Of a DNA stretch of 64,000 bases, positions 3,399 to 52,788 are shown one piece after another (the stretch's first letter is position 1; each line of letters opens with the position of its first letter). The position numbers and the translations under genes were made by a program. Below the pieces are notes generated by a model. That model made no database searches, was not told where the DNA came from, and was given only the letters and a program-made list of their open reading frames with translations. Origin of the DNA: Marsupella aquatica (taxonomy: Eukaryota > Plantae > Marchantiophyta); NCBI GenBank assembly GCA_973895155.1, contig OZ316898.1:5133079-5197078 (forward strand). The letters are read 5' to 3'.

Positions 3399-3469
3399 CA
3401 CTAGTAGAAACCGGGGGGTATTTAGACCCCATTAAACGACTATTCAATACCGTATAGGACTTGGAAACG

Positions 3470-7660: not shown

Positions 7661-7662
7661 GC

Positions 7663-12261: not shown

Positions 12262-12401
12262 GTAGATTCACAGTCACACCCCACGCAGCAGGAAACAACA
12301 ATCACTTCAACTGCGACCAACCATGACAAGATGAGTTAGTTCAAGGATCACATTTATTACAAAATTGTGATTTATACAAAAATATGAGGGACTCCTACTC
12401 C

Positions 12402-18600: not shown

Positions 18601-18969
18601 TGGCCCACTCTAAGCTCCTGCGCCGCTCCGACTGCTAGTCGTTCTGTAGACGGTCTGTATCCTCCCTGACTGCAGCTCCTCCCCGCCCCCAGCTCGTCAC
18701 CCGCGTCTTCTCCCCAATTTGTGGTGAGCTCCTCCTCGACCACAGCACCCTAAACTGCTTTGCCCAGCCTCTGATGGCCTTCACGTTGTTACCGATTGTC
18801 GCTCCCCACAAAGTCCACAATCCATAAACCAGGCAGATAGTGCGCCCGTAGAACAGATGCAACCCGCATGCAGCTTCACCAGCTCAATGGCAGCTCAACA
18901 GCTTAAGGGTGCAGCAAAAGGGCGTTGAATAGGTTGTCTCACCTCACCCTTCGAGAGCCGGTCATTGCA

Positions 18970-22350: not shown

Positions 22351-22479
22351 TCTAACAGGATGCAATGAACTGCTACCGGTCCTTGCATGCTGCTCCCTAA
22401 ATACCCTGGATTAACTTATGGCTGACGCTTCTAAGACTAAAGGACTATGATTTAACTGGTATAATGTTACCGTTTACAT

Positions 22480-30546: not shown

Positions 30547-31038
30547 TAGTCGCGTGCAGGGCAGTGCATTGACTACATTTTGCCTACTTATTGACGGTCG
30601 TGACAGGACAATGCAATTCATAGACGTTTTACTGGCGCTTATTAGCATTACTATCCTCAGTAGTTACTGACTGTCCACTCATTTGTTCTAAGTGGATGTG
30701 AAATTAATGATTGATCGTAATTGATTGTGGTCGTTCTCATTCATTTGAAATGACTGACGGACCATGCATAGTCTGTTGCCGGTATGTGTGGTACCTCTAG
30801 GGTCACGCGACCAGTCGCGTGCAACGCAGTGCATTGACTACATTCTGCTTATTGACCGACGTGACAGGACAGTGCAGTGAAATCGACGGACATGACAGGA
30901 CTGTACGCTTATAGTGATATTCTCTAATGTGCAGGATCATAATTATTATGGTGACATCTACAATCTGGATCAGGGAAGGCGGACAAGTTATTATAGGCAT
31001 ACGTGAGAAACAGGTTGGAAAAGGTCGCGTGATAAGTC

Positions 31039-33281
31039 TTGATCCTTCCAGGGTTTTGTCACAATGTTCCTCTTGGGGCGGACAGAGTTCTTCTTCTATT
31101 GGAGGAAGTTTTTGACGAGACCATTCTATGCGAAGATGGCAAACTTTTGAAGGACATGATTGGGGGTTACGGACCTTGTATGGGAAAGGAATCAGCTTTT
31201 TCGAGCTCCCATGGAATCGGAGGATGGTTTGGCACTGTTGGTGATGATCAAGATCCAGTCAATCAAAATTCTGATGGGAACAACCATAATGAGAGTCGGT
31301 CTGGTGTGGAAGTAGTTTTACCAAAGGCCTTGTGGATGGGCATGCCTGTAAAGGTGGTGGATGAGAACAAGTTGATTTTTGCAGTGGCAACTATACATGT
31401 TCTAGATCCTATAGTGAAGCTTGGGGATGTCACCCTTGGGAATACACATGTGGGAATTCTGATCAACGATTTTGTCGAGGGAGCTACCATAGATCATCTG
31501 AAGCATAGAGATTGCTTAAAAGCTTGGTCGATGGACCAACTCATTGCCAAGGATGGCAACTTGTTGTCTTTCCACAACATCAGGCAAGCTGTGGGAGGGA
31601 ACACATCTCCAACAAGTGGCAAGCGGTCCTACGTCCATAAAAGTAGGAAAAGAAAGAGTCCATCTTCCCAAACATCTAGAAGAGACACATCTTTGGCACG
31701 TCAAGATGTGTTGTTGATAAACACTAAGGACTGTTGTAGTGAACATTGTTGCCAATATTTGGACCGCAACTTGGCTATGGCAATTAGGCAAAAGTGGTGG
31801 TCAAAATCTTTTGCGGAGCGCAAGGAGGAGGAAATCAAGGCTATTAAAAATACAATACACTTGGGTACTGGAGAAAGGATTCTAGTAGTGGAGGGCAAAG
31901 TATTGTGCTTGGAGGCATGGAGAATCATTCATTCAAGAGGAAAGACTCAATTTTATGCCTTGAAGAAGACTGTGATGGCTGGAATGAACATAGGTACCCA
32001 TGGTAATGCTGGAAAAAGGCGTATGTCCGAGAAAGTATCTCAAGCGTTCATGTCAATGAAAGAGATTATTGAGGAGGCAGCTGATCATCATTCAGCCAAG
32101 TTGAGAACCATGGCAGATAATACAAGGATGGTTTTGAGGGAATTGCCAACAAATCTTACTTGGGAGAATATTAGAAATAGGGTTAATGTTGTCAACCAGG
32201 AGGCTGGTCTTCCTCCAATTTCCCAACCCACCTTGAGTCATCTACATCAGATGTATTTCAGGGAGTTCTCACGTCACAAAAAGGGCAACAACTTTTCAAA
32301 GTGTACAACTTGTAGTGAGTTGCTTCAACGGAAAGCAAACCTTACAGGAGCTAAGGAAGAGTTAGAGGGCCTAAGGCGTGACGAGGAGGAACATCACCAA
32401 GACCACACACAACAAAGAATGTGCTATCATACCTGGAGATATGAGTCCATCCATCGTCCAAAGGAAGTGTTATGCCTTATTCATGATAAGATGGATCATT
32501 CAAAGACAGCTCTCCCAAGAATGCCCTTCAATCCTAAGCATGTGGATGGTGCCCAAAAGTTCCCAATTACTGTCACTAGTATCCTTACTCATGGTCATGG
32601 TCCCAAGGCCATAGCCCAATATCATGTTGGAGTGTGGCCAGGTGATGTCAACATCACTATTGGGTCAATTGATTCAATACTAAGGATGTTGGAAAACCCA
32701 AATCCAATGATCAAATCACTTGTGGAGGGGCCAGACTTGACAAGTCTTTTTAAAGACCTCCTTTTTGGGAGAGCAGATATCTTGGAGGCAAGTGTCCTTA
32801 GAGCATTTGAGGATGACATTGCCTACATCTCAAGCCTAGGTACTTTACTCACAATCCTTTAATTTATTATTATTTAATAATATAAGCTCACACACACTGA
32901 CACTCTACTTTGTGTAGTTGTTGCTCCTCCTAGCCAAGGTTTCATTAATAGGGTTTAAACCCTAAACCCTAAATTGGGGTTTAGGGTCTGACTAGGGTTT
33001 TATTTAAAAGCATTATGAGATTGTTACATTGTGATGCAGCACCTGAGGCACCAAAGTTTAGGCCCCTTCCACGAGTATTGAAGCTACAACTGGATAATTG
33101 TGCCTCAGACAACAAGAACAGATATATGATGGCTTATTTGTCATTGTTGACGGCAAGGGAGGTGTTTGAAGAGGTTCATCTTGGTTTTATGGTGGTTGGG
33201 CATACTCATGAGGACGTTGACGGTATGTTTGGGCATTTTTCAGAGTCTATGATGCATAACCCCACATACTCATTGCCTGAG
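31039..33281 (+). pseudogene. Sola-like DDD transposase (DUF7869-type), 5' part; spliced (about 32839/32918-32938/33040); broken by the gypsy insertion
   Basis: CCSEHCC, FSKCTTC, HDKMD, LQLDNCASDNKN and FMVVGHTHEDVDGMFG motifs. A 21-nt mini-exon with GT/AG boundaries keeps the frame. Confidence 0.8.
32950..33000. repeat. Short interstitial TTTAGGG/CCCTAAA telomere-like repeats in both orientations
   Basis: AGGGTTTAAACCCTAAACCCTAAATTGGGGTTTAGGGT...TAGGGTTT inside a predicted intron. Confidence 0.7.
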
Positions 33282-36200
33282 TGTGACGCCGCCGGTACGG
33301 CGAGTAATGAGTAATTCGGTCTAAACCGTGCTTAGCACGCACGTTAGGGGTATCTTAGGCCGCTATGATTAGCATAACGACAGTATTTAGATAGCCATTA
33401 TGAGTAGGAAATCATTAGTCAATAAGGGGAATTCATGTTTGGGCTGGCGGCGCGTCGCCATTCGCACGCCCGGGTTACGAGCGTGGAGGGGCCCCTCCCT
33501 CGGGTCCGTATAACGAACTTCGGGAGGCGTCCACTGACATGCGGTGACTCAGACCGGCGAAGTGGCCGGTACACTACAAGCGTGAACGGTTCAGCCTATA
33601 GGCAACGAGGAGATGTCAGGGGATCGACAAGCCCTCAAGGTATAAAAAGGGAGCCGACCCTTTGTAGTGCACCAGTCCATCAGTCCACGCGCCATCTTCG
33701 ACCCCAACTCTCTCGTTTGCTCTTAGTCGCCACTACTATCTCCTCTGAATGTCGCACACGATCCTCTCCAGTTTGGCCATTCGATTCTGGATGCAGTTCA
33801 TATCTACCGGAAGACACTTGGCCGACTCATTGAAACACGCCAACCCGCGCCGATACGAAATCAAATGCGAGTACGAGAGAGCCATCCGCCTAGCAGGACG
33901 ACACCACTACATCCTTAACTTTGACTACCCGTCTCAGAGCGAGATTTACCGACCAGCAGAGGTATCTGGGTACTTCTTCAACGGAGACAAATATATCGGT
34001 TTCTGGGAAGCATTGCTTCAGCTTCCGGACGAGGTCTTTAATATCCCGGGTACGATCGACTTGCAACGACATCACTTTGACCACATCCCTGCTCAGGTTC
34101 GGGCTATCATCAATAGCGAGTCCAGCACTACCCGTTCGACAAGGTTGTCTATACTTGCTTTGGAGAACTTCTACCAGCACCTGCAGAGCTTCATGGGGAC
34201 TAGACCCGCAACCACCGGCGCCGACCCAGTCGACCCCATACCCGTACCCGCACCAACGTAGACTCAGGCTCAGGCTCAGCTTCAGTCTCAGTCTCAGTCT
34301 CAGCCTAGCCAACCCCCACCGCCGATCGCCCCGCCAGTAGTACAAGTACGCTCCGTCATCAATGCTGTGGACCTTAGCGATGATGACGAGGCTACCCCAC
34401 CCTTGCTCAGGCGGCCCAGAGGAGCAAACACTTAGGGGGCCGACACTACATTGTCCCCTCCCCATGCTCGGACCCAAGGAGCGGCTCCAGCAGACAACAT
34501 GGTGACCGTGGCCGCCCCGAGCCCAATACTAACGGCGGTAGCACTACCTATGCCCGATAGAGAGGATGGGGAGGTGTCACCCTCCCCGAGCCAGTCACGG
34601 GGGAAGAAGAGGAAGGAACCCACCACTGCATCCGGGTTACCATTGGCCACGGTAGCCGTGGCCAAGGTGACAATGCACCGCATGGGGGAAAACATGCATA
34701 AGAACATCCTCCATCCCAAGCATGCGGTGTACCTGAAGACTCAGGGATTCGAGCACCTCGCCTCTCTCCCCTGGAACACTTGCATGTACTAAGGGGAGGA
34801 CATGACAGAATTCGTCAAGAATTATGATGACGCACGTCAACATACTCGGCTGCGGGGAAGGAATATGTCCCTCACGGAAGAACGGCTCAAGATGATCTTT
34901 GGATTACCCGAAGGTGACCATCGAGTCGAATCACGGGCTCCCAGGGGCAAGGGAGCCAAGTACCAATCCTCGAGTTTTCCCTCAGAGGGAGCAGTGGACA
35001 ACGGGTTCGTGATGAGGACCTGCCTCATCCCTGAGATAGCTGAGCGACTGGAGTTCCAAAGGTACGCCCTCCACATGATGGAACCCTGGGGGGAGATCTC
35101 CGCCGCCCAGGTTATCCAGGTCGAGAACTATCGACCTAGGAAGTGGGCGTCGTACTTCGCTAAGAAATTCCATGAAGAGATGGAGCGGCGAAGGAAGACG
35201 TTGTACATTGGCGGGAAGGCGTATTTCGCTAGCCACATCGAGATCATTCTTGAGTGGTACGTTCGGTTTGATCGACGAACCCTTCCCCGTGTCAACGTTA
35301 CAAAGCTGGTCCCAGCTAGGTGGGTTTCCCCGGCCTTGGAGAGACGGCCCCAACCCGAGGCCCGAAGTCCAGCGGATACGCAAGCTTCACCCACCCCACC
35401 TCCACAAGTAGCTGTAGTCGTAACCGAGGAGGTACCGGATGGGTCGGTTATCGCAACCGTAGATGCGATCCAACAGGCTGAGCTAAGTACATAAGTTGGT
35501 ACAGTGGAGGTCTTACTCGAGCCCGGGTCTCCCAAAGACCCACCGGTGGCTATTCCGGAGAACCAGACATTACTACAGGAGGACACTCCAGCCCCTTCCA
35601 ACATTACGTCCCCAGGGCTGGATGTCACTGCCCCGGGCCCCGCGCGTGTTGACGTCTGCCCGTGCCCAACTCCAGACAGGCACAACCTGGACCACCCGGA
35701 ACTCTTCGTACCGGGTACATTTCTGAACGGGCTTCTGGGAGATTTCTCTCATCAAATTGCCCGGGATACCGGGGAGTTCATGGCCCGGAAGGTAGCCTGT
35801 TTCTTCAATCATTAGTTAGTTGCCGTAGTAAAGGCAGGTCGGGCCCAGTCAGAGGCCCTTCAAAGGATAGAGCGGTACCGGGTGGAGTCCGTATACTTAA
35901 AGAACAAAGTTGCAGCTCAAGAGGCTGAGCTTCTGCAACTACGACCCAAAGTTGTAGCCGCCGATGAGTTGTTAGCAAAGGCGCACGCCCTTACCGCCCT
36001 AGCCGAGCAGGCCAAAGCTGGGAACGAGGCCGAGATTGCACGACTCCGGAACCAGATTGACAGTTTGAAGAATCAAACTATCATCTGGCAGAAAGACCTG
36101 GAGGAGGCCGAAGAATGGGCCCAGCGGGACACTATGGAGATAGCCACGCTACAGGCCGAAGTGGCGCGGCTCCATATCGAAGCCGAGAAGCAGGACCAGC

Positions 36201-37296
36201 TGGCGGGCAAGCTGATGAGCAACGCCCAGCAGCTGGAGGAGGCATGCCAGGAGGTAGCGGAGGAGACAGACGCGGCAAAGCAAGAGAACGAATCTCTGCT
36301 GGACCAGGTCCAGCTCCTCAAGGTGGACAATGACAGACTTCGTAAGCAGCGGGATGGCCGCTCCCACTCGGGAGGCTCTGGCAAGCGTGCCAGACATTAG
36401 CGGCGGAGTAGGAATAGAATAGGGTTAGGAATAGCTAAGTCAGGCTATTGGGACAGGCACCTGCCTTAGTTACAGCAGCACTGCCATGCTGTCCAGCCTG
36501 CGTAGATTAGGATCTTCTAATAAGACACAGCCGTTTTTCGGCCTCACAGTCAGATTAGTTAGGACCTAAGTCAGCAAATCTTTGGGCGGGAGGACACTCC
36601 GTTCCTCGGCCCTTAGTATTTAGTGCACCCCTCGGTAGAGGCAGGGGGTTTTTAGTCTCAGAGTTGGACATCCATGGTATGTGCGGGGAGTCCCGACCTC
36701 TAGGAGTGAAAGAGTACCAAGGGGAGGGGGTAGGACTAAGCTCGCCAGGCGAGTGCGGAGCCGGGCTCCGTTGTAGTATACTCCCTCGGCCTTGAACCTG
36801 TTCATTCCAGAGCTGTCGGGTCAACCAAGTGTACGCACATGTCCCCTATGTAGTAAAATCCTTTTCCATTATTTCCTTCGTGTAAATCGAGATTGTATGC
36901 TTGTGTGCGTGTATGTGTGTGTGAATCTCGTGTATAGGTGACAACGCCGGGCAGAACGCACTACCCGAGTCGTGCACGGGGTGCAGCTTGCGGGTATGTG
37001 GTTGCGAGCACGGGTTGAGGACCTGTATCATAGAATCCGGATCAAAGGCGGACAACACGAAGGCTTAGAAGTCCTTAAGCCGGGGTCGATCCTGTTATCG
37101 ACTAAGGTACATTCCGGCGGTGGAACACAAACCATATCTAGGAGATGTCCGTATCTAACAGTAGGCGCACTTAGCGCTAGTTTACGTGAATTAGGTGCAT
37201 TACGTTCTTCCCTCCCTGCCCGAACCCTCATATTTACGAAGGAGGTGCCCGTTTAAAGCTAAAGCCCAAGTTAAGGCCAAGGCTGATGACGTGACA
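33282..37296 (+). repeat. 5' LTR, 4,015 bp
   Basis: Colinear with 45182-47884 plus 51489-52783. About 11 substitutions in the first ~380 bp, mostly transitions. TATAAAA at 33641. Confidence 0.96.
33749..36400 (+). pseudogene. LTR-encoded ORF of about 883 codons (N-terminal domain, Pro/Gln linker, plant-transposon-type domain, coiled coil)
   Basis: ORFs starting 33749, 34451, 34802, 35504 and 35882 are all in one frame. Four of the five internal stops are sense codons in the 3' LTR copy (CAG, TAC, GAA, GAG). Confidence 0.85.
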
Positions 37297-37309
37297 TAGC
37301 CTTTGTTTT

Positions 37310-37328
37310 TGGCGCTAGATGGAGGGGA
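37310..37328 (+). promoter_or_regulatory. Primer binding site (TGGCGCTAGATGGAGGGGA), 13 nt downstream of the LTR
   Basis: Starts with TGG after a T-rich spacer and resembles the TGGCGCTAGAAGGAGG PBS of Tat-group elements. The tRNA identity is not determined. Confidence 0.75.
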
Positions 37329-37537
37329 CACTCTACAGATCGTAGAGGGGAGACATGTGCGTATTCGCCTGGGCAGAATACACCAGGCCCTAGTACTAAC
37401 CATCGCATTTACACGAGTAAATGCCCATCACTCGTTCTCAAGCAGCTTACTTGAGGAGATTGACCAGCGAATGAGAAGGTGCGACCACAACAAGCTCCGA
37501 TTCTTCGGGCTCGGAGGACTCGCAATCGCCCCGACGA

Positions 37538-39554
37538 ATGAACATACCACCGGGACCTTCGGGGTCCAGTTCGAACGGTCCTACTGCGGTTCCTGTGCCA
37601 CCACCGCCACCACCGCCACCACCTATGGCAGCCACCCCACTGATGGCCCGCGCTGCCCAAGCTCCTCCACAAATATCGCAACGATCGCGGTTTCATTATC
37701 AACCTTTCAAAGGGCGTCATGGGGATGATCTGGATGAATGGTTGGATGAGTTTGAAGCCACTGCTAAGGCTAACGGGGAAGACGCCATTAAGTTAACCGT
37801 CCTCCCCGGAGTGATGCGGGGAGAAGCTCATCCATGGTACAACTCGCTGCCACCCGGGACTACCTGGGCACAATTCCAAGCTGCGTTGTTGCAAGAATTT
37901 CGTGCTATTGGATCCGAGCATCGCTCTCTATTAAAGATCGGCCAGCTTTGCATGGGAAAAAAGGAGTCCCTGTGAAAGTTCATTCAGAAGTTTCAGAAAC
38001 TTGCTGCCAAAATATGGCCCAGGCCTGGTGACGCACTCCAGCTTACATGGTTCCTCCATGGTTTGCCCACGAATATGCAATTCTGGGTGCGCCAGAATAA
38101 TCCAATTTCAATGCAAGCAGCCATAGCGTGCGCCGAAACCTACCGGGAGTCCACCTATAACTCCCGGCGAAGCCAACGGGCACGCCGCAAGAAGGGCAAG
38201 TACGAGACCTTCAGTGACAGTGACTCCGAATCAGATGACGAGAAGAAGAAGAAACGCAAGAAGAAGAAGAAACATCGTTCAACCTCGTCCAGTTCGGAGA
38301 CTGAATCTAGTTCGGATTCAACTTTGAACAGCGGGTCCTCCACCTCCAGCTCATCAGGAAGTGATTCGGAGAGTGAGAGCCGAAGCAAGAAGAAGAAAAG
38401 GCGAGTTGGCTGCCGAAGCAGACAAGCTTAACGAAATCACAGATCGCCTCAAAGCACTGTCAATACATCTCGCGGAAAAGCCGGTGGAGAAGAAGAAGCC
38501 ATTTGAGATTCGAGCTCATGCATGGTGTTCAAAGTGCTTCCAATCCGGGCATGTCGTGCAAGAATGTCCAAGATGGAAGAACCGAGTTCACCAGGTAGAC
38601 TTAGATGATGTCGACAACCCGGGACCTGAAGCGGAGTCCACGGAGTATTTCTTTGAAGACCCTCCTGATTCGGTGTATCAGATTTCAACGGTGGGTCTGC
38701 GTAACTTAGCAGGTAGAACTGCATACCCCTACCCAAACAATGGCCGAGGCTTCCAAGTTATCAGTAACCCTAGCATTCCACCTAAACCAGGGATTTGGCG
38801 ATCCCCGGTTTGTTACAACTGTGAGAAACCAGGCCATTTTGCGAGGGAATGCACAGAACCAAGACGCCAGGGGGATGGTCATGGCACGCCACTTTGTCAA
38901 GTCTGCAAAATGGAAGCTCATTCCACGACCAACTGTCCATTGGTAATGGCCGCTCGAACAAATGCAGCAAGACCAGCCCAAGGCGGACCGGCCACGAGTG
39001 ATGCGGTCGTCCAAATGATTGCGGTGGAATGGCAAGATGACAACACCGAGTGGGTGAATCTGGTGGACGTGGCGGAACACCCTAATCCATCTGACGAGGC
39101 TGAGTGCTATCGTGTATCAACAAGAGCCGAACGGAAGGAAGAGAAGCAGGAGGAGAATTGCAGGAAAAAGCAAGATACTACTCCGGTGCAGCCAGCGATA
39201 GATATACCCCCGGAGAAGGATGATGACTACCAACGGGACGACCCGAAGCTATTTTTTCCCCGCATCAAAGAATTGGTAAAGAAACAGCTGGAGGCCTACG
39301 AAGCTCGGGAGTACCAGAAGGCAATCGATAAGGACATCAAAGCAACTGAGACCGCCCGGCGACAGGAGCAAGAAAAGCAAGAAAAGCAAGAGGAAGCCAA
39401 GCAGCAGCCGAAGGAAGAAAAGAAGGAGGACTATGATATTAAGGAAGACGTGAAGAGTTGCCCGGTTACAGCAACGGTAGGACAACTGCTGCAAAACAAT
39501 CCACAGTACAGACGGCAACTGAGGGAGTTGCTTACGGGTCGACGACGGAGATGA
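37538..39554 (+). pseudogene. gag with three zinc knuckles; stop at 37973 and frameshift near 38400
   Basis: FKGRHGDDLDEWLDEFE...MRGEAHPWY...TW..F...LLQEF; CSKCFQSGHVVQEC, CYNCEKPGHFAREC and CQVCKMEAHSTTNC. Confidence 0.9.
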
Positions 39555-41073
39555 CTACCCCGAGTTGGGACCGCGGATTGCAACATGATATGCGAGGACC
39601 TGGGAGCGCCGGACATCTCGATTGAAATTAATAATTGTACCATCAAGATGGTTCTCGTAGACGGAGGAGCGGGAGTCAACATCATGACTGAAGAAACATC
39701 AGTCAAGTTAGGATACCTCACGTATCAACCCACAGCCCGAGCTATCAGATTAGCAAACGGGGCAGGGGTACTTCCATTGGGCACGCTTACACGGGTACTC
39801 ACTCTGGTAGGAGGGGTGGAGTTCTATCTCAACTTCCTAGTCATGAGGCCGGTTCGGCCCTCCTCTTATCCGGTCCTCCTAGGCAGGCCGTGGCTGTACG
39901 GTGGCCGTGTGGTCACGGATTGGGGAAAGAAGGAGCTACGGTTTGGGACACCCACAGTACGGGTATCATGGGCAATGGACGATTATCAGGGTGAAACCCC
40001 ACAGGGACCCGAGGAATATGATTTGGAGACCTCGGAGGAAGAGGAACTCAACATGATTGAACTCATCTCGTCCCTGTCTGAGGAAGATGTCTTCGGAGTT
40101 AAGGCAACCCGCGAAACACATCTCCTGAATTACCCGAAGGCTGCTATTGAGCCCACCCCAAGCACCTCTACTGCCCGGGATGAGGAAACGCAAAAACAAC
40201 TCATCGATACGGAGGACCCGGCTCCAGCTAAGCAAGGAGCCGATGCTGCTTCTACTAGTGTAGAGCCTCATGACCACGAACCAGCCAAACAACCGGCCGA
40301 GGCCGAAAACCCGAGACCGAGACATAAGAAACAAGTCTCCTGGGATCCGCCCATCCCGCAATTGGAGGAAGTAACTCCAATCCCGAGACCAATCCCGGTT
40401 CCACCCATGTACAGAGGAGTTCGGTTAGCTGAACTTGATGCGAGCCTGGACCCGAGCTTGCGGAACCAGGTTGAAGTCATCAGGAAGGAGCACTACCGGA
40501 AGTACACCATTGGGATGGACAAATCGTTTAACCTGGGCCACGCTCTGACGGGGGAGGTGGAAAAATCTATCCAAGCTCTGCTCAAGGAATATGAAGATGT
40601 GTTTGCATGGAGCCATCACGATTTAGCAGGAGTCTCCCCTGAGTTAGGAGAACACACGATCGATTTGAATCTGGGGGCCCATGCAGTACGGCAGTGACAA
40701 CGTCGCATGAACCCAAGGTACTCCATCTTAGTGAAGGAGGAAATTGATCGTCTCCTCGCCGCAGATATCATCTACCCGGTAATGGCCAGCGATTGGGTCT
40801 CTCCCATCGTCATTGTACCAAAAAAGGGAGGAACGGACGGAAAACCTAAGATCCAGATTTGTCAGGACTATTGTAAGTTGAACGACGCAACCTGAAAAGA
40901 CCATTACCCGTTACCATTCACGGATATGGTTCTAGATATGGTAGCCCAAAATGAAATTTATACATTCCTTGATGGGTATTCGGGTTATAACAAAATCTGG
41001 ATTCACCTCTCGGATTAGCTCAAAACAACGTTCACTACGGAATGGGGGACTTTTGCATTTCGGAGAATGCCGT
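39555..41073 (+). pseudogene. pol 5' part: aspartic protease and N-terminal half of reverse transcriptase
   Basis: VLVDGGAGVNIM...LLGRPWL; SDWVSPIVIVPKK, CQDY.KLN, KDHYPLP, LDGYSGYN, TTFTTEWGTFAFRRMP. In-frame TGA stops, probably from CGA. Confidence 0.92.
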
Positions 41074-43250
41074 CACTAGAAGAAAACCACCCATTCTGAG
41101 ACCCTCCCCTATGTGACTTGTGCGAGACCTTCATAAATATGCGACTCCAAGTTTGTGGGTGTCATGTTAGTTACATCATACCAACTAAGTTTTGGTGAGG
41201 TTGTGGGAAGTCATGCTTACAACTTTATCCAATGTCGCTATTGTAACACTGGTAAGTAAGAAATAGGTAAGTTATGTTAGTTACTCCACAATAGTGCAAT
41301 ATGAATTGGACATCATTTTTTAAAATTCCGTCAGCATGCATACCCCATTAGCCAATTTCGGATGCCAATCCCTAATATGCAACTCCCGGTGCAACTACAT
41401 ATTGCACACTCATGGTTGGCGAGGTCCAAATATAATGGGTATAAATATGGGGGTTTTCATCAGAATGGTGGGTACTTTCACTTATAATGTGGATTCATAC
41501 CTGACTATATTTGGCCTTGTTCTTGACCAAAGTGCACTCTCCCCACATTGAACTTTTTGCTAAGTCATTTGCATTGGTTCTTTTATGTCCAAACCAACCT
41601 GTTTGCTAAGTCACTCGATGGCTGCCCACATGTGAGGGGTACTACTTTCCCTCAGGGTCACTGTACCTTGGAGGTTGGTTTTGCAAGAGATTTTGGGGGT
41701 ACTACTTGCCCTAAGTGTTCAGGGTTAGTGTGCCGCAGAGGTTGGTTTTGCGAGGGAAATCGGGAGTCAACGACCTTCATTCCAGCTGCACTCTTCGCGA
41801 ACTTTCTGCAGGGTCGTTTGAAAGTGTTTGAGCGCGACTGGACTTTAGGGTGCAAATGTGTTTAGGATTGGGCCTGCTACGAGCGTCAGTGTGGAGGTCT
41901 GCCAATCAGTTTTGAGGGGAGTCCATTGTCGCTTTTCAACCTGCTGGTGAGCTAAGCTGCTATTGAGTTTCAAGTGAGAGCTGCCGACTTGGAGTTGAGC
42001 TCTACGAGGTGGTGCCTGAGTGTACATCTGCTCGACATACTTTTGGGAGCTCGTAGTTGGTAGGAGGGCCAAGTCGTTGCACAAAAAGTTGCAGCCGTGA
42101 CAGTGCAAACTAGCTAGGCGGAGGCTGGTTACTGCAAGCAAGGCGGAGGATCACTGCGAGCTAGGTGGAGGAATGCTGCGCTGCTTCACATTGTCAAGAG
42201 ACATGCTGCATCGGCCCAAGTAAGGTTGCATTGACCTATCTATCTCTATGTCTATAAGGTCCTAACCGATAGTCTGCTTAGTGAGGTCCTGCTTTAAGCT
42301 ACATTTGTGCGATTGATTGTGTCCTGAGAAGCTTAACCATCACATGGGGGAACGGTAGCGAGAAAGGAGGGGTGGAGCCTGATGGTCGCCAAATATTCAA
42401 ACAGGGTCGCCTTGCTCGATATTGGTCTCATTGTTTTTTGCTACGGTGTGAAGGCGGCGGAGCTTCTAGTCTGACCTTTGAGTGACTTGCGGTGAGCTTC
42501 TAGTGTGGCTATTGAGGTCGACTGACCTGCATTGACCAAGCTGATCAACCTACTGAGCTGCCATTGGGAGTTGGAGGTTGTGTTGCGTTCGATTTTGGAG
42601 TCGGGAGGCTAAATGCGATAGCTCTATTCCGGGCTCTGTTCAGCTAATGTAGACGTTTCTGCTCAGGAGATGAGGTAAAATCTATCAACCTTCAAGCTGC
42701 TGTGAGGTTCATTGAAGAGGGAGGTTGAATGCCTAGCGCTATGAGGTGAGGAAGGAGAGTATGGCCAAGCTGCATCTTTAGGGGTTTTGCTTCAGCTTCG
42801 ACCATCTTTCATCGTCGTAATCGCTGCTCTCGCCTATCGCTACATGGCGGATTGCTGCTCTGCCCTTTTGGCATGGGTCGCCGGCCTGCTGGATGCTATC
42901 TCCAGTCCCGGTGTTGCAGTAGTGTCCCCGACTCTAAGATGGAACAGAGTGTCATCTTTCTTGTTTCCTGCTGCTGCTGATGTATGTCTGTTCTCCCCTA
43001 TTTTTGCTTACTGATTGGTCTCTCCACACTTCTTGCTTGACATGACTGTTTTGCTCCTCCCTGTATCAGAACATGCCTTGTGCCCCGTGCTCTGGCAATG
43101 GGGTGGGGGGGTGAACAGACGGCCTTAAGGTCCACTAAATTTATAGGAACCGTGCAATCGTTCAGCTGATTTTAGCAGCAAGTTCCCTTGCTTTCCCCTG
43201 TTTTTGCTAGGATCCCTCCCCACTAATCACATGCATCCTTTACTTTTCTT
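41074..43250. mobile_element. Truncated CACTA fragment in the RT domain (one terminus only; right boundary approximate)
   Basis: Begins CACTAGAAGAAAACC exactly where RT breaks off. Shares about 130 bp (42960-43092) with 17401-17530 of the large CACTA in inverted orientation. No second TIR seen. Confidence 0.75.
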
Positions 43251-43259
43251 GGTGGCCCG

Positions 43260-45213
43260 TATTACCGTCGGTTCATTAAAGACTTTGCTAAAATAGCGTT
43301 GCCCTTGACTGAAATGATGAAAAAGGACGCGGTGATCGAGGAGACACCCAGGAGACGGATTGCTTTCGAAGAACTCCGTAAAAGACTCACCACCGCACCT
43401 ATCATGGTCACTCCAGACTGGAATAAGGAGTTCCACGTGTATGTCGATGTGTCATGGTTCTGTATTGGATCCGTGCTCAGTCAGCTCGATGAGGACGGAC
43501 GCAACTACCCCATCTACTTCGCTAGCCATCAATTATTCACAGCCAAAAAGAATTATTCCCCCACTGATCGAGAAGCTCTGGGAATAATCTACTCGTGTAA
43601 AAAGTTCCGACACTATCTGCTAGGCTACAAGGTCATATTCCACACGGATCATGATAGCCTGAAGTACATGGTCAACAAAGCGGACGTGACGGGACGGATA
43701 GCCCGGTGGGTGCTACTTCTCCAGGAATTTAACTACGAAGTTCGGGTTCGGCCCGAAAAGGCACACCTCAATGCCGACTTCTTTTCAAGGCTGGACGGCG
43801 TACCAGTCGATCAGCCAATTGATGATATTTTCCCGGATGAGGAGTTGTTCCACGTAGGGGCGGGGATGCCAACGTGGTACGGCTCAATAATCACCTTCCT
43901 CTTAACAGGCCGCATCCCTGACGGCATCAATCAGGAAGCCGCTGCTGTGTTTCTACGGAAAGCCGGGCCTTACGTCATGGTACAGGGTCACCTACATAAG
44001 GAAGGAGTTAATGGGAAGTTACGACGCTGCTTGGAGTATAAGGAGACGCTTATCGTGATGCGGGCCTTGCATGAAGAAGAAGCTGGAGGCCATTTCGCGA
44101 CTATCACGACAGCCCGAAAGATTATGGACTCAGGGTATTGGTGGCCTAAGTTGCATCGGGATGTACAACACTTCATCAAGGGCTGTGACCTGTGTCAGCG
44201 GGCTGGGGCTCCGAGACGAGCTCATCATCACCCTCTCACGTCCGTGCTTCCATTAGCACCATTCAAAAAGTGGGCATTGATTATATCGGGTCATTTACTC
44301 CCGTTACCCGAAGACGAAGATGCAGGTACATCCTACTTGCTATTGATTACTCCACCAAGTGGGTCGAAGCACGGGCTACGGTGAAGGACGACGCCGCAAC
44401 CAGCGCCAGGTTCTTATATGAACAGATTTTCACCCGGTTTGGACCACCCTTAGAGTTGGTAAGCGACCGTGGAACACACTTCCTCCATGACACTGTAGCC
44501 CAGCTTACGGAGTGTTACCTAGTCAAGCACCGCAAGACTACCCTGTATCATCCTAAAGCCAACGGGGTGACAGAGAGAGCAAATGGTATCAATGGGAAGA
44601 TCCTCAACAAAGCTGTAGCTGCGCACAAAACGGATTGGGATGATAAGTTGTACGCAGTAGTGTACTCGTATAATCTAGCTTACAAAACTACTACGAGTCA
44701 CAGCCCGTACTTTCTCGTGTTCGGCCAACATTCGTTGGTGCCCGTCGAGTTTGAGGTACACACTCCACGGGTCAGCATTCGGGATCGCTTACCTGAATCT
44801 GAAAGTTTGTCAGACCGAGCTTATCAGATTGAAGCCTTAGAAGAGGCACGGCTACTAGCAGCTCGACACGCCGTAATGAAGCAGACAACTTCCAAGAAAC
44901 AGCACGACAAAGGACTACGGAAGGTCGACGTCGTGACAGGCGATCTAGTCCTTCTGTATGACAGTAGGTACATGCAGTTTCCAGGGAAGCTTCATACCCG
45001 TTGGTTAGGGCCCTTCCTAGTCAATTAGATCTACCCTAACGGATCTTTGGAGCTTGCGACGTACGCCGGCGATTTACTCCCCACGCGAGTCAGTTATGAT
45101 CGTGTAAAGAAGTACCACCATCAAGACGACGACGCCAAGAGTGATGTTCGCGAGGACGCTTCACAATTAAGCAGGGAGCTATGTGACGCTGCCGGTACGG
45201 CGAGTAATGAGTA
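43260..45213 (+). pseudogene. pol 3' part: RT thumb, RNase H and integrase (HHCC, DDE, GPF); frameshift near 44270; reading frame ends just inside the 3' LTR
   Basis: YYRRFIKDFAKIA.PL, FHVYVD, NYSPTDREALG, HTDH, H...GGH...CDLCQR, GIDYIG, LVSDRGTHF, YHPKANGVTER and WLGPF. Confidence 0.93.
45169..45181 (+). promoter_or_regulatory. Polypurine tract
   Basis: AAGCAGGGAG-CTA immediately before the TGTGAC start of the 3' LTR. Confidence 0.7.
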
Positions 45214-47884
45214 ATTCAGTCTAAACCGTGCTTAGCACGCACGTTAGGGGTATCTTAGGCCGCTATGATTAGCATAACGACAGTATTTAGGTAGCCATTA
45301 TGAGTAGGAAATCATTAGTCAATAAGGGGAATTCATGTTTGGGCTGGCGGCGCGTCGCCATTCGCACGCCCGGGTTACGAGCGTGGAGGGGCCCCTCCCT
45401 CGGGTCCGTATAACAAACTTTGGGAGGCGTCCACTGACACGCGGTGACTCAGACCGGCGAAGTGGCCGGTACACTACAAGCGTGAACGGTTCAGCCTATA
45501 GGCAACGAGGAGATGTCGGGGGATTGACAAGCCCTCAAGGTATACAAAGGGAGTTGACCCTTTGTAGTGCACCAGTCCATCAGTCCACGCGCTAGCTTCG
45601 ACCCCAGCTCTCTCGTTTGCTCTTAGTCGCCACTACTATCTCCTCTGAATGTCACACACGATCCTCTCTAGTTCGGCCATTCGATTCTGGACGCAATTCC
45701 TATCTACCGGAAGACACTTGGCCGACTCATTGAAACACGCCAACCCACGCCGATACAAAATCGAACGTGAGTACGAGAGAGCCATCCGCCTAGCAGGACG
45801 ACACCACTACATCCTTAACTTTGACTACCCGTCTCAGAGCGAGCTTTACCGACCAGCAGAGGTATCTGGGTACTTCTTCAACAGAGACAAATATATCGGT
45901 TTCTGGGAAGCATTGCTTCGGCTTCCGGACGAGGTCTTCAATATCCCGGGTATGATCGACTTGCAACGACATCACTTCGACCACATCCCTGCTCAGGTTT
46001 GGGCTATCATCAACAGCGAGTCCAGCACTACCCGTTCGACAAGGTCGTCTGCACTTGCTTCGGAGAACTTCTACCAGCACCTGCAGAGCTTCATGGGGAC
46101 TAGACCCGCAACCACCGGCGCCGACCCATTCGACCCCATACCCGTACCCGCACCAACGCAGACTCAGGCTCAGCTTCAGTCTCAGTCTCAGCCTAGCCAA
46201 CCCCCACCGCCGATCGCCCCGCCAGCAGTACAAGTACGCTCTGTCATCAACGCTGTGGACCTTAGCGACGATGACGAGGCTACCCCACCCTTGCTCAGGC
46301 GGCCCAGAGGAGCAAACACTTAGGGGGACAACACTACATTGTCCCCTCCCCATGCTCGGACCCAAGGAGCGGCTCCAGCAGACAACACGGTGACCGTGGC
46401 CGCCCTGGGCCCAATACTAACGGCGGTAGCACTACCTATGCCCGATAGAGAGGATGGGGAGGTGTCACCCTCCCCGAGCCAGTCACGGGGGAAGAAGAGG
46501 AAGAAACCCACCACTGCATCCGGGTTACCATTGGCCACGGTAGCCATGGCCAAGGTGACAATGCACCGCATGGGGGAAAACGTGCATAAGAACATCCTCC
46601 ATCCCAAGCATGCGGTGTACCTGAAGACTAAGGGATTTGAGCACCTCGCCTCTCTCCCCTGGAACACTTGCAGGTACTACGGGGAGGACATGACAGAATT
46701 CGTCAAGAATTATGATGACGCACGTCAACATACTCGGCTGCGGGGAAGGAATATGTCCCTCACGGAAGAACGGCTCAAGATGATCTTTGGATTACCCGAA
46801 GGTGACCATCGAGTCGAATCACGGGCTCCCAGGGGCAAGGGAGCCAAGTACCAATCCTCGAGTTTTCCCTCAGAGGGAGCAGTGGACAACGGGTTTGTGA
46901 TGAGGACCTGCCTCATCCCTGAGATAGCTGAGTGACTGGAGTTCCAAAGGTACGCCCTCCACATGATGGAACCCCGGGGGGAGATCTCTGCCGCCCAGGT
47001 TATCCAGGTCGAGAACTATCGACCTAGGAAGTGGGCGTCGTACTTCGCTAAGAAATTCCATGAAGAGATGGAGCGGCGAAGGAAGACGTTGTACATTGGC
47101 GGGAAGGCGTATTTTGCTAGCCACATCAAGATCATTCTTGAGTGGTACGCTCGGTTTGATCGACGAACCCTTCCCCGTGTCAACGTTACAAAGCTGGTCC
47201 CAGCTAGGTGGGTTTTCCCTGCCTTGGAGAGACGGCCCCAACCCGAGGCCCGAAGTCCAGCGGACACGCAAGCTTCACCCACCCCACCTCCACAAGTAGC
47301 TGTAGTCGTAACCGAGGAGGTACCGGATGGGTCGGTTATCGCAACCGTAGATGCAATCCAACAGGCCAAGCTAAGTACAGAAGTCGGTACAGCGGAGGTC
47401 TTACTCGAGCCCGGGTCTCCCAAAGACCCACTGGTGGCTATTCCGGAGAACTGGACATTGCTGCAGGAGGACACTCCAGCCCCTTCCAACATTACGTCCC
47501 CAGGGCTGGATGTCACTGCCCCGGCCCCCGCGCGTGTTGACGTCTGCCCGTGCCCAACTCCGGACAGGCACAACCTGGACCACCCGGAACTCTTCGTACC
47601 GGGTACATTTCTGAACGGGCTTCTGGGAGATTTCTCTCATCAAATTGCCCGGGATACCGGGGAATTCATGGCCCGGAAGGTAGCCTATTTCTTCAATCAG
47701 GAGTTAGTTGCCGTAGTAAAGGCAGGTTGGGCCCAGTCAGAGGCCCTTCAGAGGATAGAGCGGTACCGGGTGGAGTCTGTATACTTAAAGAACAAAGTTG
47801 TGGCTCAAGAGGCTGAGCTTTGCAACTACGACCCAAAGTTGCAGCCGCCGACGAGTTGTTAGCAAAGGCGCACGCCCTTACCGC

Positions 47885-50800
47885 TGTGAGATAAGGATGT
47901 TTATGAGAGAAGGGTTAACTAGCCATAAATTTTTGAATTTTTAAGTTTAAGATCTCAAGTGAGGCTAAAGAGGGACCTGAAGACTACTATGAAGTGTTAT
48001 GAGACTTTCAAGCCCATCTGAGGTCAACCCGGATTGATATTAGAGAAGGAGGATCGACCCGGAACTTTTTGTTATAAACCTGGAATGTGATATAAAGCTT
48101 ATACCGAGACTCTACTCAACAACAGCTGTCCATTGCCAAAGTTTTTAAAACCATAAGTCAAACATAGGCACGACCACAGCAGAATCCGGATATAAGGAAG
48201 GAGAGTCGATCCGGCCTCTCACACCTCTCAAAGCCGAACTTAGTAGGTTTTGAGTTCCCGAGCGCATTAGGCTATTAAAGCAGTAGAGTGAGGAGGCTCT
48301 ACCCTTTTGGTAGAGGATCTTGGGTCCGGATTATAGGACCAATCTTGAATTTATTGATGAGAGCCTAGATATGAGGGTACTGACTGATTCGTTGTGAGGG
48401 GAATGCCTACTCCGCCGCTGGGAGTGAAGGCAGGAAGTTTGAGATTCTGATCGTGCATACATCGGTGATGAGAATGAAGGCCAGGTCTATCCGGACATCC
48501 ACATTGTAGGCCCGTTTGAGTCTATCTTTGCCCCACGTTCGATGCACCTGAATTTTGATTGACGGGATCTTGATCAACGTTTCCAGAAGCGCTTGTCAGT
48601 TGATCAGAAACGCCGTAGCCAGGTCGACCCGGACATTTCTACCATTGGTCGACACCGAAGCGATTGACCATTCTGAAGTCGCAGCATTGTAGAGCTCGCC
48701 GACAAGGAGGGAGGCCATTTATTGGGAATCCATTTTCTGCTTCGATAAGTCCTATGGAGCAAGGGACGGATCCAGCCGGAATGTCCACTTCTCGCGTCTC
48801 TAAGGGGCATTCAACCTCAACATCACCTGCACCTACTCCGGTTAAAGCCCCTGTGAGACGATCAAAGAGAAAGGAGGTCCCTATTGCCATGAAAATTCTG
48901 AGGCCAGTTATTCCGGACAGTGAAGCTGAGAAGGTCAAACTGAGGGAGTCTTTGCTCAGGATGGGCTGTGAGTCTCTGATGGAGCTACCTTGGAGTTATC
49001 AGAGCGAAGATATGATCAGAGAGATCCGATCTAAGGAGTATCCGGCTGAGTTTAAGGATACCTTCAGAGGCCGACCTGAGCGATGGACTCAGATGATGAT
49101 TGCAGGAGCTTTTGTATTGGAATGAAGGAGAAGGTCCAGTGGGAAGAGCTGTCAACCTAATCCTTCCTTACTTCAAAGGAGCCATCAACAGTAAGGACGG
49201 GTTCAATGTTTCTAAGTGTTTGGATCCTGACCTGAGACGAGTCTTCAGCTTTCTGCTACCCCTGCTGTACCCTGAGAAGCCAAGAAGAGTTATTGTTGGA
49301 GTTGGCTCTACCATTGTTGCTGCTTACAAGGGAGAAAGAAAAGTCAACTGGGCTAAGCTTATCTTTGATTTGATAAGGAAGTTGGTACAGAACCTATTCA
49401 ACAAGAGTCCTACTCCCCTCTCCTGCTACCTGGTACATCTATATAGCTTTGAAGGAGTTTTGTTCAGAGAGGAGAAGAAATTACTATTGGCCAAGTACAA
49501 CTTCATCAAGTATGGAGAGACAGATCCAGATATCACCAAGGCCACCTCTGATGACAGTGAGGGTGAGGAACTAGCAGAGACAAATCCTCGAAAGACCCGA
49601 TCTGCTGCCCGGAACCTCGACCCGGACTTTTCCGACCCGGCCTTCGTCGACCCGGCTGAATGTCTGGATGCACCCGGCCATGCCTCCCAAGATACCCTAG
49701 CTGATTTCCAGATCATCTCAGACACGTTCCAGAAGGTGAAGAGGAAGACCACTGTGATGGAGAAGGTCATCACCGACATTTCGCAGAAGCTAGGAGTGAA
49801 ACCAGGGCAGATTCTTGAGAAGATCTCCACCATGAGTGATGCCACAGATAAGAAGAAGTTGGAGAAGGAGAATGAGTTCCTCAAGAAGAAGGTATCTGAA
49901 CTCAAATAGCAGTTGGAAAGGAGTAAGAAGAAGAATGAGCTTGAGCATACTCTCCAACTCAGTATCACTCAATCTTTGGATCTGATTGAGCCTTTGACTA
50001 AGATAGCTTCTCTGGATCTTCTTAAGGCCCAAATTTATGATGAGTATTTGGCCAAGAACACCACACCCATCCTTTTCTCCAAGATTAACCATTTAGTGGT
50101 AGATGTGAGTACCAAGGTGGATGATGCACTTACAGGCCTCTCAAAGACCTGTGAAGCCTTAAGGGAGATGAGTGACTTGACTACAGAGGAGCTATTAGCT
50201 GATACTGAGATTCCTCCCTTTACTACCAGATCTTTCTCTCCTAGTCCTCATGAAAGAGTCTATTCCACTGGCCCCTCATCACCCCTCAACCCTCCTGGTT
50301 TCCCCACTCCCAGTACACACTTCCACTCCCATTCTTACACCTATTCTCATGACCCAAGTGCCCATCAGGAGAACATGGATATTGACCCGTCCATCCCTTT
50401 TACCACTGGCCAGCAAGGAGTTTTCCTTCGACCAGAACCCCTTGCTATGGCTAACCCCGAGTAGGTTCCTTCCCAAAAGCTAGGACCAGAATAGAGTTAT
50501 ATTTAGAGAGTTAGAGCCACATTAGTTTAGACTTAGAAATATCTATATAGATTAGTATATGAGTAAGTAGACTCCAGTATTTTGTTGATGTATCCATTGG
50601 AGACTCTACTCCATTTTTTATTAGGATAGTTCACTTTTATTTACATATTTCTTTAGACTTGGGTTTTTGAAGAGACATGTCTTTTCATAATCTCCACTTT
50701 TAGTACAAAAGGAGGAGAACCCAAAGTCAACAGAGAGAGAGAAAATATACATTTGATTTCCTCATTGCCTTTGAAGGAATCTATGTCTTTCTTCCCTTCC

Positions 50801-51483
50801 TTTTTACCATGGTTGAGTAAAAGGAAGAAGTTTAGCAACCCTTGAGTTGTTGTGAAATGTTCAATGAATGCTAGAGTGTGCCTATAATGATATTGGAAGA
50901 TCAATGAGATTTGTGACCAATACATTTGGAAGATTCACCAAAGAGGAAATTGACATTTGCACAAAACTCAACCAAGCAATCTTAAGGATTGTAGGAGAAG
51001 TAAGCCGATTCGAGTATCCTAGTACCGTCCTCAACAGGACCAGAAAAGTATCCCGGGTTGATTTACGTTCATATCTTCTAAATTCAAGAGATGGAGAAGA
51101 GTTGCTACGAGAAATCAAAAAGCATAGAAAATGTTGATTTCTGAATCTTAAATTAGGCCATAATCCTTATTGAAGGAGTGGTGATGGTCAGAAATTCAAT
51201 TCCCTTGCACTTTGAAAACTCCTATCTACTCTCTCTCTAGTTTCAATCTTTGTTAATTCTAGTCTTTATTATTGCACTGTGAATCCTAAGGATTACCCAC
51301 TTGAGTTTGTGGTTAAACACTTATGTTAAGGAGATCATTAGAAATCTCTCCAACCTAAGAATATTGGTGTAAACTTCTCAAATTGTGTTAATTAGGTCTT
51401 TTCGATCTTATCCACTCCTAACCGGAACAAAATCGATTTGTTAAGGAATAAATAGTCATTTATCTCTTTATCACCTTGCTACA
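47885..51483 (+). mobile_element. Solo LTR, 3,599 bp, from a different family, with an internal ORF
   Basis: TGT...ACA termini and 5-bp TSD ACCGC (47880-47884, 51484-51488). Absent from the 5' LTR. No gag, pol or internal LTR pair seen. Confidence 0.88.
48664..50464 (+). pseudogene. Solo-LTR-encoded ORF (about 570-600 aa; one frameshift near 49115, one stop at 49907): plant-transposon-type domain plus coiled coil
   Basis: LLRMGCESLMELPW...EDMIRE...FRGRP..WT...AF.L / KDGF....C.DP..RRVF.FL.P.LYPEKP.R...KVNWA...TPLS.YL.HLY. Confidence 0.8.
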
Positions 51484-52788
51484 ACCGCCCTAGCCGAGCA
51501 GGCCAAAGCTGGGAACGAGGCCGAGATTGCATGACTCCGGAACCAGATTGACAGTTTGAAGAATCAAACTGTCATCTGGCAGAAAGACCTGGAGGAGGCC
51601 GAAGAACGGGCCCAGCGGGACACTGCGGAGATAGCCATGCTACAGGCCGAAGTGGCGCGGCTCCAAACCAAAGCCGAGAAGCAGGACCAGCTGGCGGGCA
51701 AGCTGACGAGCAACGCCCAGCAGCTGGAGGAGGCATGCTAGGAGGCAGCAAAGGAGACAGACGCGGCGAAGCGAGAGAACGAATCTCTGCTGGACCAGGT
51801 CCAGCTCCTCAAGGCGGACAACGATAGACTTCGTAAGCAGCGGGATGGCCGCTCCCACTCGGGCGGCTCTGGCAAGCGTGCCAGGCATTAGCGGCGGAGT
51901 AGGAATAGAATAGGGTTAGGAATAGCTAAGTCAGGCTATTGGGACAAGCACCTGCCTTAGTTACAGCAGCACTGCCATGCTATCCAGCCTGCGTAGATTA
52001 GGATCTTCTAATAAGACACAACCGTTTTTTGGCCTAATAGTCAGATTAGTTAGGACCTAAGTCAGCGAATCTTCGGGCGGGAGGACGCTCCATTCCTCGG
52101 CCCTTAGTATTTAGTGCACCCCTCGGTAGAGGCAGGGGGGTTTTTAGTCTCAGAGTTGGACATCCGTGGTATGTGCGAGGAGTCCCGACCTCTGGGAGTG
52201 AAAGAGTACCAAGGGGAGGGGGTAGGACTAAGCTCGCCGGGCGAGTGCGGAGCCGGGCTCCGTTGTAGTGTACTCCCTCGGCCTTGAACCTGTTCATTCC
52301 AGAGCTGTCGGGTCAACCAAGTGTACGCACATGTCCCCTATGTAGTAAAATCCTTTCCCATTATTTCCTTCGTGTAAATCGAGATTGTATGCTTGTGCAC
52401 GTGTATGTGTGTGTGAATCTCGTGTATAGGTGACAACGTCGGGCCGAACGCACTACCCGAGTCGTGCACGGGGTGCAGCTTGCGGGTATGTGGTTGCGAG
52501 CACGAGTTGAGGACCTGTATCATAGAATCTGGATCAAAGGCGGACAACACGAAGGCTTAGAAGTCCTTAAGCCGGGGTTGATCCTGTTATCGACTAAGGT
52601 ACGTTCCGGCGGTGGAACACAAACCATACCTAGGAGATGTCTGTATCTAACAGTAGGCGCACTTAGCGCTAGTTTACGTGAATTAGGTGCATTACGTTCT
52701 TCCCTCCCTGCCCGAACCCTCATATTTACGAAGGAGGTGCCCGTTTAAAGTTGAAGCCCGAGGCCAAGGCTGATGACGTGACACTGAG

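Follow-up and report, generated by a model that had tools for sequence, protein, structure and literature searches.

A window of 64,000 nucleotides from the liverwort Marsupella aquatica (assembly GCA_973895155.1, contig OZ316898.1, positions 5,133,079 to 5,197,078; all positions below count from the first letter of this window) contains a Ty3/gypsy retrotransposon in which each long terminal repeat (LTR) carries an open reading frame (ORF) of 883 codons. The best explanation of the whole, which we put slightly ahead of even, is that this frame is an LTR-borne accessory gene for a regulator of the VANC/plant mobile domain (PMD) fold which likely counters host silencing. The LTR and its frame are observed directly, the fold is predicted by structural modelling, and the role of the protein and its placement within the LTR are proposed from these.

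A Ty3/gypsy element with 4-kb LTRs

Self-comparison of the window revealed that positions 33282-37296 recur at 45182-47884 and 51484-52783. Both copies start with TG and end with CA, a 5-bp target duplication (CTGAG) lies on either side of the element, motifs resembling a primer-binding site (PBS; TGG) and a polypurine tract (PPT) adjoin the inner LTR edges, and the domains between the copies follow the gypsy order gag-protease-reverse transcriptase (RT)-RNase H-integrase according to Pfam scans (RT was called from the translation, its middle being lost at an insert). For these reasons the 4,015-bp unit is confirmed as a true LTR, in agreement with an earlier sequence-only reading of this DNA, which had described a 4-kb LTR. 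The 5' and 3' LTRs are 96% identical, with 139 substitutions at 3,997 aligned sites (Kimura two-parameter distance 0.036); 121 of the 139 are transitions, CG and CHG contexts predominating. Pfam scans of the pol pieces detect one RNase H region, the archaeal-type second RNase H being absent. Two insertions that the earlier reading had missed disrupt the element, one with CACTA ends in RT and one of 3.6 kb in the 3' LTR; the element measures about 13.8 kb once nested inserts are subtracted. As the same reading had noted, pol enters the LTR and no extra ORF follows it: the integrase frame extends 33 nt into the repeat. The main parts of the element are:

33277..33281 (no strand): target-site duplication CTGAG, left copy, from sequence; right copy at 52784-52788
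33282..37296 (+): 5' LTR, 4,015 bp, TG..CA, from self-comparison; other copies start at 33282 and their flanks are unlike (agreement 0.43)
37310..37327 (+): PBS-like TGG motif, from sequence, 13 nt past the 5' LTR end
37625..41073 (+): gag (with zinc knuckles), protease and first RT part, with stops and frameshifts
41074..43226 (no strand): CACTA-starting insert within RT; right end approximate, RT catalytic middle not seen in translation
43227..45214 (+): RNase H and integrase
45169..45178 (+): short PPT-like motif directly before the 3' LTR, from sequence
45182..47884 (+): 3' LTR, first part, from self-comparison; second ORF copy from 45649
51489..52783 (+): 3' LTR, second part (self-comparison match from 51484); ORF end at 51891

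The PBS-like motif is a putative match to tRNA-Asn. Its spacer of 13 nt (37297-37309) exceeds the distance of 0-5 nt which is usual between LTR end and PBS (PMC6317226).

The LTR-internal reading frame

The ORF occupies 66% of the LTR and lies wholly within it, hence in both LTRs. Its frame contains five internal stops compared to 22-44 in the other five frames, and 2,000 shuffles gave a mean of 32.6 and a minimum of 18, which bears out the earlier description of two-thirds of the LTR as a single frame. The following parts were distinguished:

33749..36400 (+): LTR-internal accessory ORF, 883 codons, five stops in the 5' copy
33749..34090 (+): N-terminal helical domain (about residues 1-113), common to relatives; model with a predicted local distance difference test score (pLDDT) of 53
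34634..35341 (+): conserved core (about residues 296-531) for which a VANC21-like fold is predicted; a basic KKRK stretch (residue 286) lies ahead of it
35846..36397 (+): C-terminal tail, proline-poor, probably helical and coiled-coil-like, with a basic KRAR end that is also found in the relative P0072

A heptad test of the C-terminal tail was not significant (P 0.17). Four of the stops are private to the 5' copy (codons 171, 348, 582 and 689, the first lying within an indel and taken from the translations) and three to the 3' copy (codons 433, 765 and 834), which also has a private 1-nt deletion near 47821; only the stop at codon 229 is common to both. Thus, seven of the eight stop positions are private, in line with the sequence-only reading, which had called the stops mostly private and the ancestral ORF largely open at insertion; because both LTRs share the codon 229 stop, the focal ORF was nevertheless probably already broken when the element inserted. 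The focal element is dead, both ORF copies being broken.

The ORF-bearing LTR is the normal form of the family

Six sequencing runs with four organism labels contain the LTR or part of it, none of them recorded as RNA. Contigs of five runs were mapped to the element in two sets (X1, X2, X3 and X5; X1-X4); one of the five may be the source of the window itself and is thus not independent. In every run of both sets all 30 depth bins are covered. Depth climbs where the LTR begins, is still high through the ORF and drops past the LTR end, with maxima over the conserved domains and minima over the linkers. Ten contigs of X2 start at 33282, with unlike flanks. Among the joints displayed (15 of 43 and 15 of 90), none that skips parts of the ORF has good support, such joints reaching at most about 220 depth against 1e4-1e5 overall in X1-X3; joints of about 3.6 kb represent the empty site of the nested insert. 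At codon 229, at least 99% of the depth carries another letter in four of four runs, and the stop therefore belongs to the parent of the focal copy and not to the family. The element represents a high-copy family whose normal form, in five of five runs, is the ORF-bearing LTR; the possibility of short LTRs elsewhere in the family, raised by the sequence-only reading, finds no counterpart in copies that begin at the same edge and cover the ORF deeply. Depth over the LTR is 4.1-5.9 times that over the integrase in four of four runs, a hint, depth being no copy number, that solo LTRs are common in the family.

Selection and relatives

Variation within the family was evaluated from the 40 of 487 variants that are listed, 32 of which fall within the ORF; 30 of these were classified, the two at stop codons being omitted. 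All nine listed variants of intermediate frequency within the ORF are synonymous third positions (nominal P 3.5e-5). Among the listed variants in which the focal copy is the outlier, 17 of 21 are non-synonymous. A profile built from three window sequences retrieved 66 clusters at E<=0.001 from 1.84 billion proteins. The relative P0072 has 906 residues, is stop-free and aligns across residues 10-882 (E 1.9e-98) in a colinear layout, with 33% identity over residues 13-521, and several other relatives possess both the N-terminal domain and the core. Purifying selection, which had been named as a check on the gene, is thus supported both by the synonymous character of the listed intermediate-frequency variants and by the existence of distant intact relatives. 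A word-index search with residues 300-530 returned none of 813 candidates. Species names are attached to three of the ten clusters looked up, all of them Calypogeia fissa (relatives of this species include CAM6090539.1, CAM6082077.1 and CAM6082161.1), and the best named relatives of the RNase H-integrase region come from Calypogeia (up to 64%), Marchantia and Physcomitrium.

Given the LTR status, the presence of the frame in both LTRs, its family-wide occurrence and its conservation at the protein level, we consider it very likely that the ORF is a real, selected LTR-borne gene.

Predicted fold of the core

The Pfam scan of the LTR protein matched no family. Four of 39 relatives weakly match Transposase_32 (PF20167; 17-30 bits, best E 4.6e-7), all four falling under the gathering cut-off of 45 bits, and DUF1985 is matched neither by the window protein nor by the 39 relatives. 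Searches of PDB sequences with either of two profiles gave no match to the core. A structure prediction, one of the checks named in the sequence-only reading, which had assigned no function, supplied a candidate. From an alignment of 60 rows the core was modelled with pLDDT 90.5 and a predicted template modelling (TM) score of 0.85, and Foldseek returned VANC21 on DNA (9LNJ) as best match in the PDB (E 0.027, probability 0.97, TM 0.53), the runner-up reaching E 1.5 and TM 0.14. VIA-align superposes 204 residues of core and 9LNJ with Z 8.1 and an rmsd (root-mean-square deviation) of 4.5; run against 48,161 chains independently of Foldseek, it selects 9LNK (Z 7.8, rmsd 4.6, 205 aligned), followed by a next match at Z 2.5. 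For this program a Z under 8 can reflect a common arrangement; the VANC21 match is isolated and spans most of the domain. A viral fold library yielded nothing credible (best TM 0.22), and the N-terminal domain model is too poor for a fold search.

According to published work, VANC and PMD domains have one fold in common, and PMD-A proteins are retrotransposon-encoded (10.1101/2024.09.27.615353; PMC13547354). This kinship, together with the weak Transposase_32 matches of the relatives, provides an independent link to the fold reading. On the basis of the models we are fairly confident that the core adopts a VANC/PMD-type fold.

Expression layout

Two features frame the ORF within the LTR:

33641..33647 (+): TATA box, the only TATAWAW of the LTR, within a CpG-rich zone and with a pyrimidine patch after it; predicted to be the LTR gene's promoter
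36853..36935 (+): polyadenylation-like signal AGTAAA, then a GT-rich tract, from sequence; putative R/U5 boundary

The TATA box, which the sequence-only reading had placed about 110 bp upstream of the ATG, starts 359 nt from the LTR start and 108 nt ahead of the ATG; the next ATG after it is the ORF start, and the chance of a TATAWAW in those 150 nt is 0.02. The 108-nt leader contains no splice donor of the GT[AG]AG type, and ten further ATGs lie between the ORF start and the LTR end. Gag could therefore hardly be expressed from the promoter at 33641, so that a second promoter after the ORF would be needed, and the genomic RNA would be set by it. Among 110 inverted pairs, one joins 36832-36846 to 37349-37363 over 15 complementary nt; no weight is placed on it.

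From this layout, placement of the ORF in the unique 3' region (U3) of the LTR appears somewhat favoured; a position in a long repeat region (R) is possible at clearly lower probability, and one in the unique 5' region (U5) seems unlikely. The sequence-only reading had proposed, as one of two options, that a PPT shift absorbed the gene into U3 and had pointed to remaining purine tracts. Both tracts are at chance level (24 of 31 purines at 36405-36435, P 0.41; a 12-nt run at 36719-36730, P 0.15), and we abandon them as relics of such a shift. The strong-stop DNA of about 3.6 kb, which was thought to be required otherwise, would be needed for an ORF in U5 and not for one in R, where strand transfer can occur earlier by an established retroelement mechanism.

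Proposed mechanism and alternative explanations

We propose that the gene lies in U3, is driven by its own TATA promoter at 33641 and uses the polyadenylation signal of the LTR at about 36853, while a weaker promoter between the ORF stop and this signal would start the genomic gag-pol RNA. Every cycle of reverse transcription would then place a single U3 copy in both LTRs, and solo LTRs would all retain it; each solo LTR would thereby form a complete cassette of TATA box, ORF and polyadenylation-like signal, which fits the anatomy. The protein may enter the nucleus through its basic motifs, oligomerise via the helical tail, bind the DNA of its own element and likely oppose host silencing. It would act in trans on members of the family, in keeping with an element that appears to have moved with a broken copy. 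VANC21 itself is reported to bind a 9-base motif repeated in the non-coding parts of its transposon and to remove methylation (PMC5735166). By comparison with this protein, the models lean, by a modest degree, towards a DNA-binding regulator that favours its own family.

Several observations weigh against parts of this explanation. With respect to the fold, Foldseek gives an E-value no better than 0.027, with an identity of 9-11% and an rmsd of 4.5-5.3; a common fold says nothing on function, and host PMD proteins of this fold are reported to help transposon silencing as well. Exact-word searches of one old copy found neither an over-represented short motif nor a tandem array in the non-coding LTR; this counts against a strict VANC-like system, a single old copy being a weak test. 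One 9-mer has four copies across one LTR and the internal region, where 0.04 would be expected, with a corrected P of 0.02 in one of 12 tests, which is weak and not significant over all tests. As regards selection, the ratio of non-synonymous to synonymous divergence (pN/pS) between the two LTRs is 0.93 (32 synonymous and 58 non-synonymous changes, six to or from stops), eight of the nine intermediate-frequency variants fall within 135 nt (36133-36268) and maybe represent one or two haplotypes, and the synonymous count itself rests on the 40 of 487 variants. The genomic context of the relatives placed no locus in viral contigs (26 pattern hits) and none in metagenome contigs (171 and 74 pattern hits). 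Moreover, the shared stop at codon 229 means that the element moved without an intact protein of its own, and the part downstream of the ORF has no canonical TATA box, a point in favour of R or U5.

The four copies of the 9-mer (36878, 37408, 43593 and 45100) mark a candidate binding word.

The alternative that we rate highest, a serious contender placed somewhat short of even, keeps the same gene and locates it in a very long R (or in U5), with the TATA box at 33641 as sole promoter of the element. Cleavage at the poly(A) site of the 5' LTR would then give a 3.2-kb accessory mRNA, read-through would give genomic RNA, and gag-pol would be made by splicing or re-initiation. This arrangement would explain why the only canonical TATA box, with its CpG-rich zone and pyrimidine patch, stands 359 nt from the LTR start and why the ORF lies between it and the polyadenylation-like signal; with the ORF removed, the LTR would show an ordinary 1.36-kb layout. 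It is difficult to reconcile with the leader devoid of a consensus donor, a long R would place the ORF twice in an RNA of about 13 kb, and promoter proximity, as known from retroviruses, could not hide a poly(A) site 3.2 kb away.

A second alternative accepts the VANC/PMD-like fold and assigns the protein a job other than anti-silencing, for instance chromatin tethering of the integration complex, import into the nucleus, or simple activation of transcription from the LTR promoter. In its favour, no target-motif arrays were found in the copy searched, the large N-terminal domain and the helical tail are left unexplained, and nuclear, accessory-type roles have been proposed for additional ORFs in a review (PMC7264820). 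Against this stand the sole solved match, an anti-silencing protein on DNA, and the report that PMD-C proteins counter Polycomb silencing (10.1101/2024.09.27.615353). We regard this alternative as credible and rather doubtful.

It is improbable that the ORF is a passenger, captured or once useful and now decaying in the LTR. Both focal copies are indeed broken, share one stop and differ from each other with the pN/pS given above. Such a ratio is neutral decay, expected after insertion and expected of any dead copy, whereas the near absence of the codon 229 stop from the other copies, the synonymous intermediate-frequency polymorphisms listed and the 33%-identical relative that retains a 906-residue open frame of the same layout all point to a maintained gene. 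Finally, a local duplication around a short LTR, for which it might speak that LTRs longer than 3 kb are reported to be uncommon, is refuted by the boundary features of the 4-kb unit, since target duplication, TG..CA ends and PBS-like and PPT-like motifs all lie at its edges, other copies start at the same base and the LTR depth exceeds the integrase depth severalfold in all four runs; we give it virtually no weight.

Comparison with known systems

VANC21 is encoded by the Mutator-like Arabidopsis transposon VANDAL21 (PDB 9LNJ/9LNK). Both VANC21 and the focal protein are transposon-encoded accessory proteins, and the focal core has the predicted VANC fold; VANC is predicted to oligomerise by a coiled coil (PMC13547354), and the focal protein has a helical tail. 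In contrast, VANC21 belongs to a DNA transposon while the focal gene resides in a gypsy LTR, the identity is very low, DUF1985 is not matched, and the tandem motif arrays that VANC21 targets in non-coding regions have no counterpart found in the focal element. VANC is moreover described as dicot-specific, with an origin proposed by capture of a host MAIN-like gene in dicots (PMC13547354), whereas the named relatives of the focal gene are from liverworts. Judged by sequence and host element, the focal protein is not a member of the VANC family.

Extra ORFs are known from plant non-chromovirus Ty3/gypsy elements, including Ogre (plant mobile domain), Retand (Transposase_28) and Athila ORF1 (PMC6317226, PMC11963269), and are placed in the internal region (PMC7264820). 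The focal element resembles these in having an accessory ORF and, via the relatives, a weak Transposase_32 link; it differs in that the ORF lies inside the LTR, and hence twice, instead of 5' of gag or 3' of pol. Like Athila/OTA elements it has a 5-bp duplication and no archaeal-type second RNase H; unlike them it has no extra ORF between pol and the 3' LTR, where the integrase frame runs into the repeat. The rice elements Retrosat2, RIRE3 and RIRE8 resemble it in possessing an extra ORF and LTRs longer than 3 kb, and they have many solo LTRs, as the depth data hint for the focal family; their grass-specific ORF0 lies upstream of gag-pol, and the accessible text does not state a placement within the LTR (PMC3485330). 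Phygy of Physcomitrium is likewise a gypsy element of a non-seed plant, and Physcomitrium, Marchantia and Calypogeia are among the RNase H-integrase relatives of the focal element. In Phygy the target duplications are 4-bp NCGN, the primer is mostly tRNA-Trp, the length is 7.7-10 kb and an extra ORF is absent (PMC6317226), which sets it apart from an element of about 13.8 kb with a CTGAG duplication and an 883-codon LTR ORF.

With regard to placement, the focal ORF lies wholly in the LTR and, if its U3 position is as we infer, would parallel retroviral genes. The sag gene of mouse mammary tumour virus (MMTV) and the nef gene of human and simian immunodeficiency viruses (HIV/SIV) are U3-borne or U3-overlapping protein genes that are copied into both LTRs. 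These belong to mammalian retroviruses, and their proteins are unrelated and much shorter. By analogy, the focal gene may be described as an accessory gene of the Ogre/Athila type with a placement like that of MMTV sag and a VANC-like fold. A literature search found no plant LTR-internal ORF; subscription papers, including the VANC21 structure paper and a 2022 EMBO J paper, lay outside its reach. Nor did it find a VANC-like retrotransposon protein beyond the PMD link, closed bioRxiv supplements, which may bear on novelty, lying outside its coverage.

Further ORF-bearing LTRs and other features of the window

A second LTR with a related frame interrupts the focal 3' LTR:

47885..51483 (+): nested 3,599-bp insert, TG..CA, target duplication ACCGC; solo LTR of a second family, holding an ORF
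48772..50464 (+): ORF within the nested solo LTR, start approximate, one frameshift and one stop; distant relative of the core

The insert lacks internal terminal repeats as well as gag and pol, which together with its TG..CA ends and 5-bp duplication identifies it as a solo LTR. It is repetitive end to end in four of four runs; neither the frameshift nor the stop of its ORF is family-wide. Against the profile of the focal core, the core of this ORF gave E 3.7e-6 (probability 87%) for its second half and, weakly, P 0.013 for its first; the halves align to the core in the right order, and a separate search gave an independent E-value of 1e-4. In the Atlas this ORF is linked to Transposase_32 and ATHILA clusters with scores of 0.82 and 0.78, which count as leads under 0.9, and a word-index search among longer proteins returned none of 123. 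In the nested solo LTR, a PPT-like purine run (at 50707) and a pyrimidine patch (near 51225) would also be compatible with placement in U3.

A third element (1-3398 and 20460-22478) carries an ORF of more than 1,100 codons which begins outside the window; its core shares 26% identity with that of the focal protein (E 2e-19), and its tail is clearly of heptad type. An LTR-like CA at 22478 ends the element, which has inserted into a gag-like frame of the minus strand. With the focal LTR and the nested solo LTR, the window contains no fewer than two unrelated LTR sequences that hold a gene of this kind. Near the end of the third element, an antisense frame of 190 codons (21742-22317, minus strand) looks zinc/OB-fold-like by eye and has no Pfam match.

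Positions 3399-20456 are occupied by a 17-kb CACTA transposon with a TGT duplication and pieces of Transposase_21, DUF4218 and DUF4216. It contains frames with twin BRCT and NSD-type PHD fingers, a chromatin-reader cargo in a DNA transposon, and 140 bp of it (17402-17541) are shared at 92% with the insert in the focal RT (41074-43226). The focal element sits in a transposase-like coding region (31036-33281 and 52789-54067), which is presumably DUF7869-like; the two flanking frames scanned gave no Pfam matches. A tandem array with a 189-bp unit lies at 24394-25301 and 26455-26631.

Implications

No function is known for the extra ORFs found in LTR elements of plants (PMC7264820), and a match to the only solved plant-transposon anti-silencing protein makes such a function testable. 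It also suggests that retrotransposons share a strategy of the VANDAL DNA transposons, and an LTR-borne VANC-like gene bears on where VANC came from. A survey of extra ORFs searched up- or downstream of the polyprotein (PMC6317226), and LTR-internal ORFs in seed-free plants may be overlooked. More tentatively, several bryophyte gypsy families may have relocated a sequence-specific anti-silencing gene of the VANC type to the LTR itself; solo LTRs, more numerous than full elements, may then serve as self-contained cassettes that unsilence the family in trans, and the VANC/PMD fold may be an accessory module of retrotransposons that is older than VANC in dicots. Plants usually delete retrotransposon genes by forming solo LTRs. 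A gene within the LTR survives this process, so that seemingly dead remnants could still supply a trans-acting protein.

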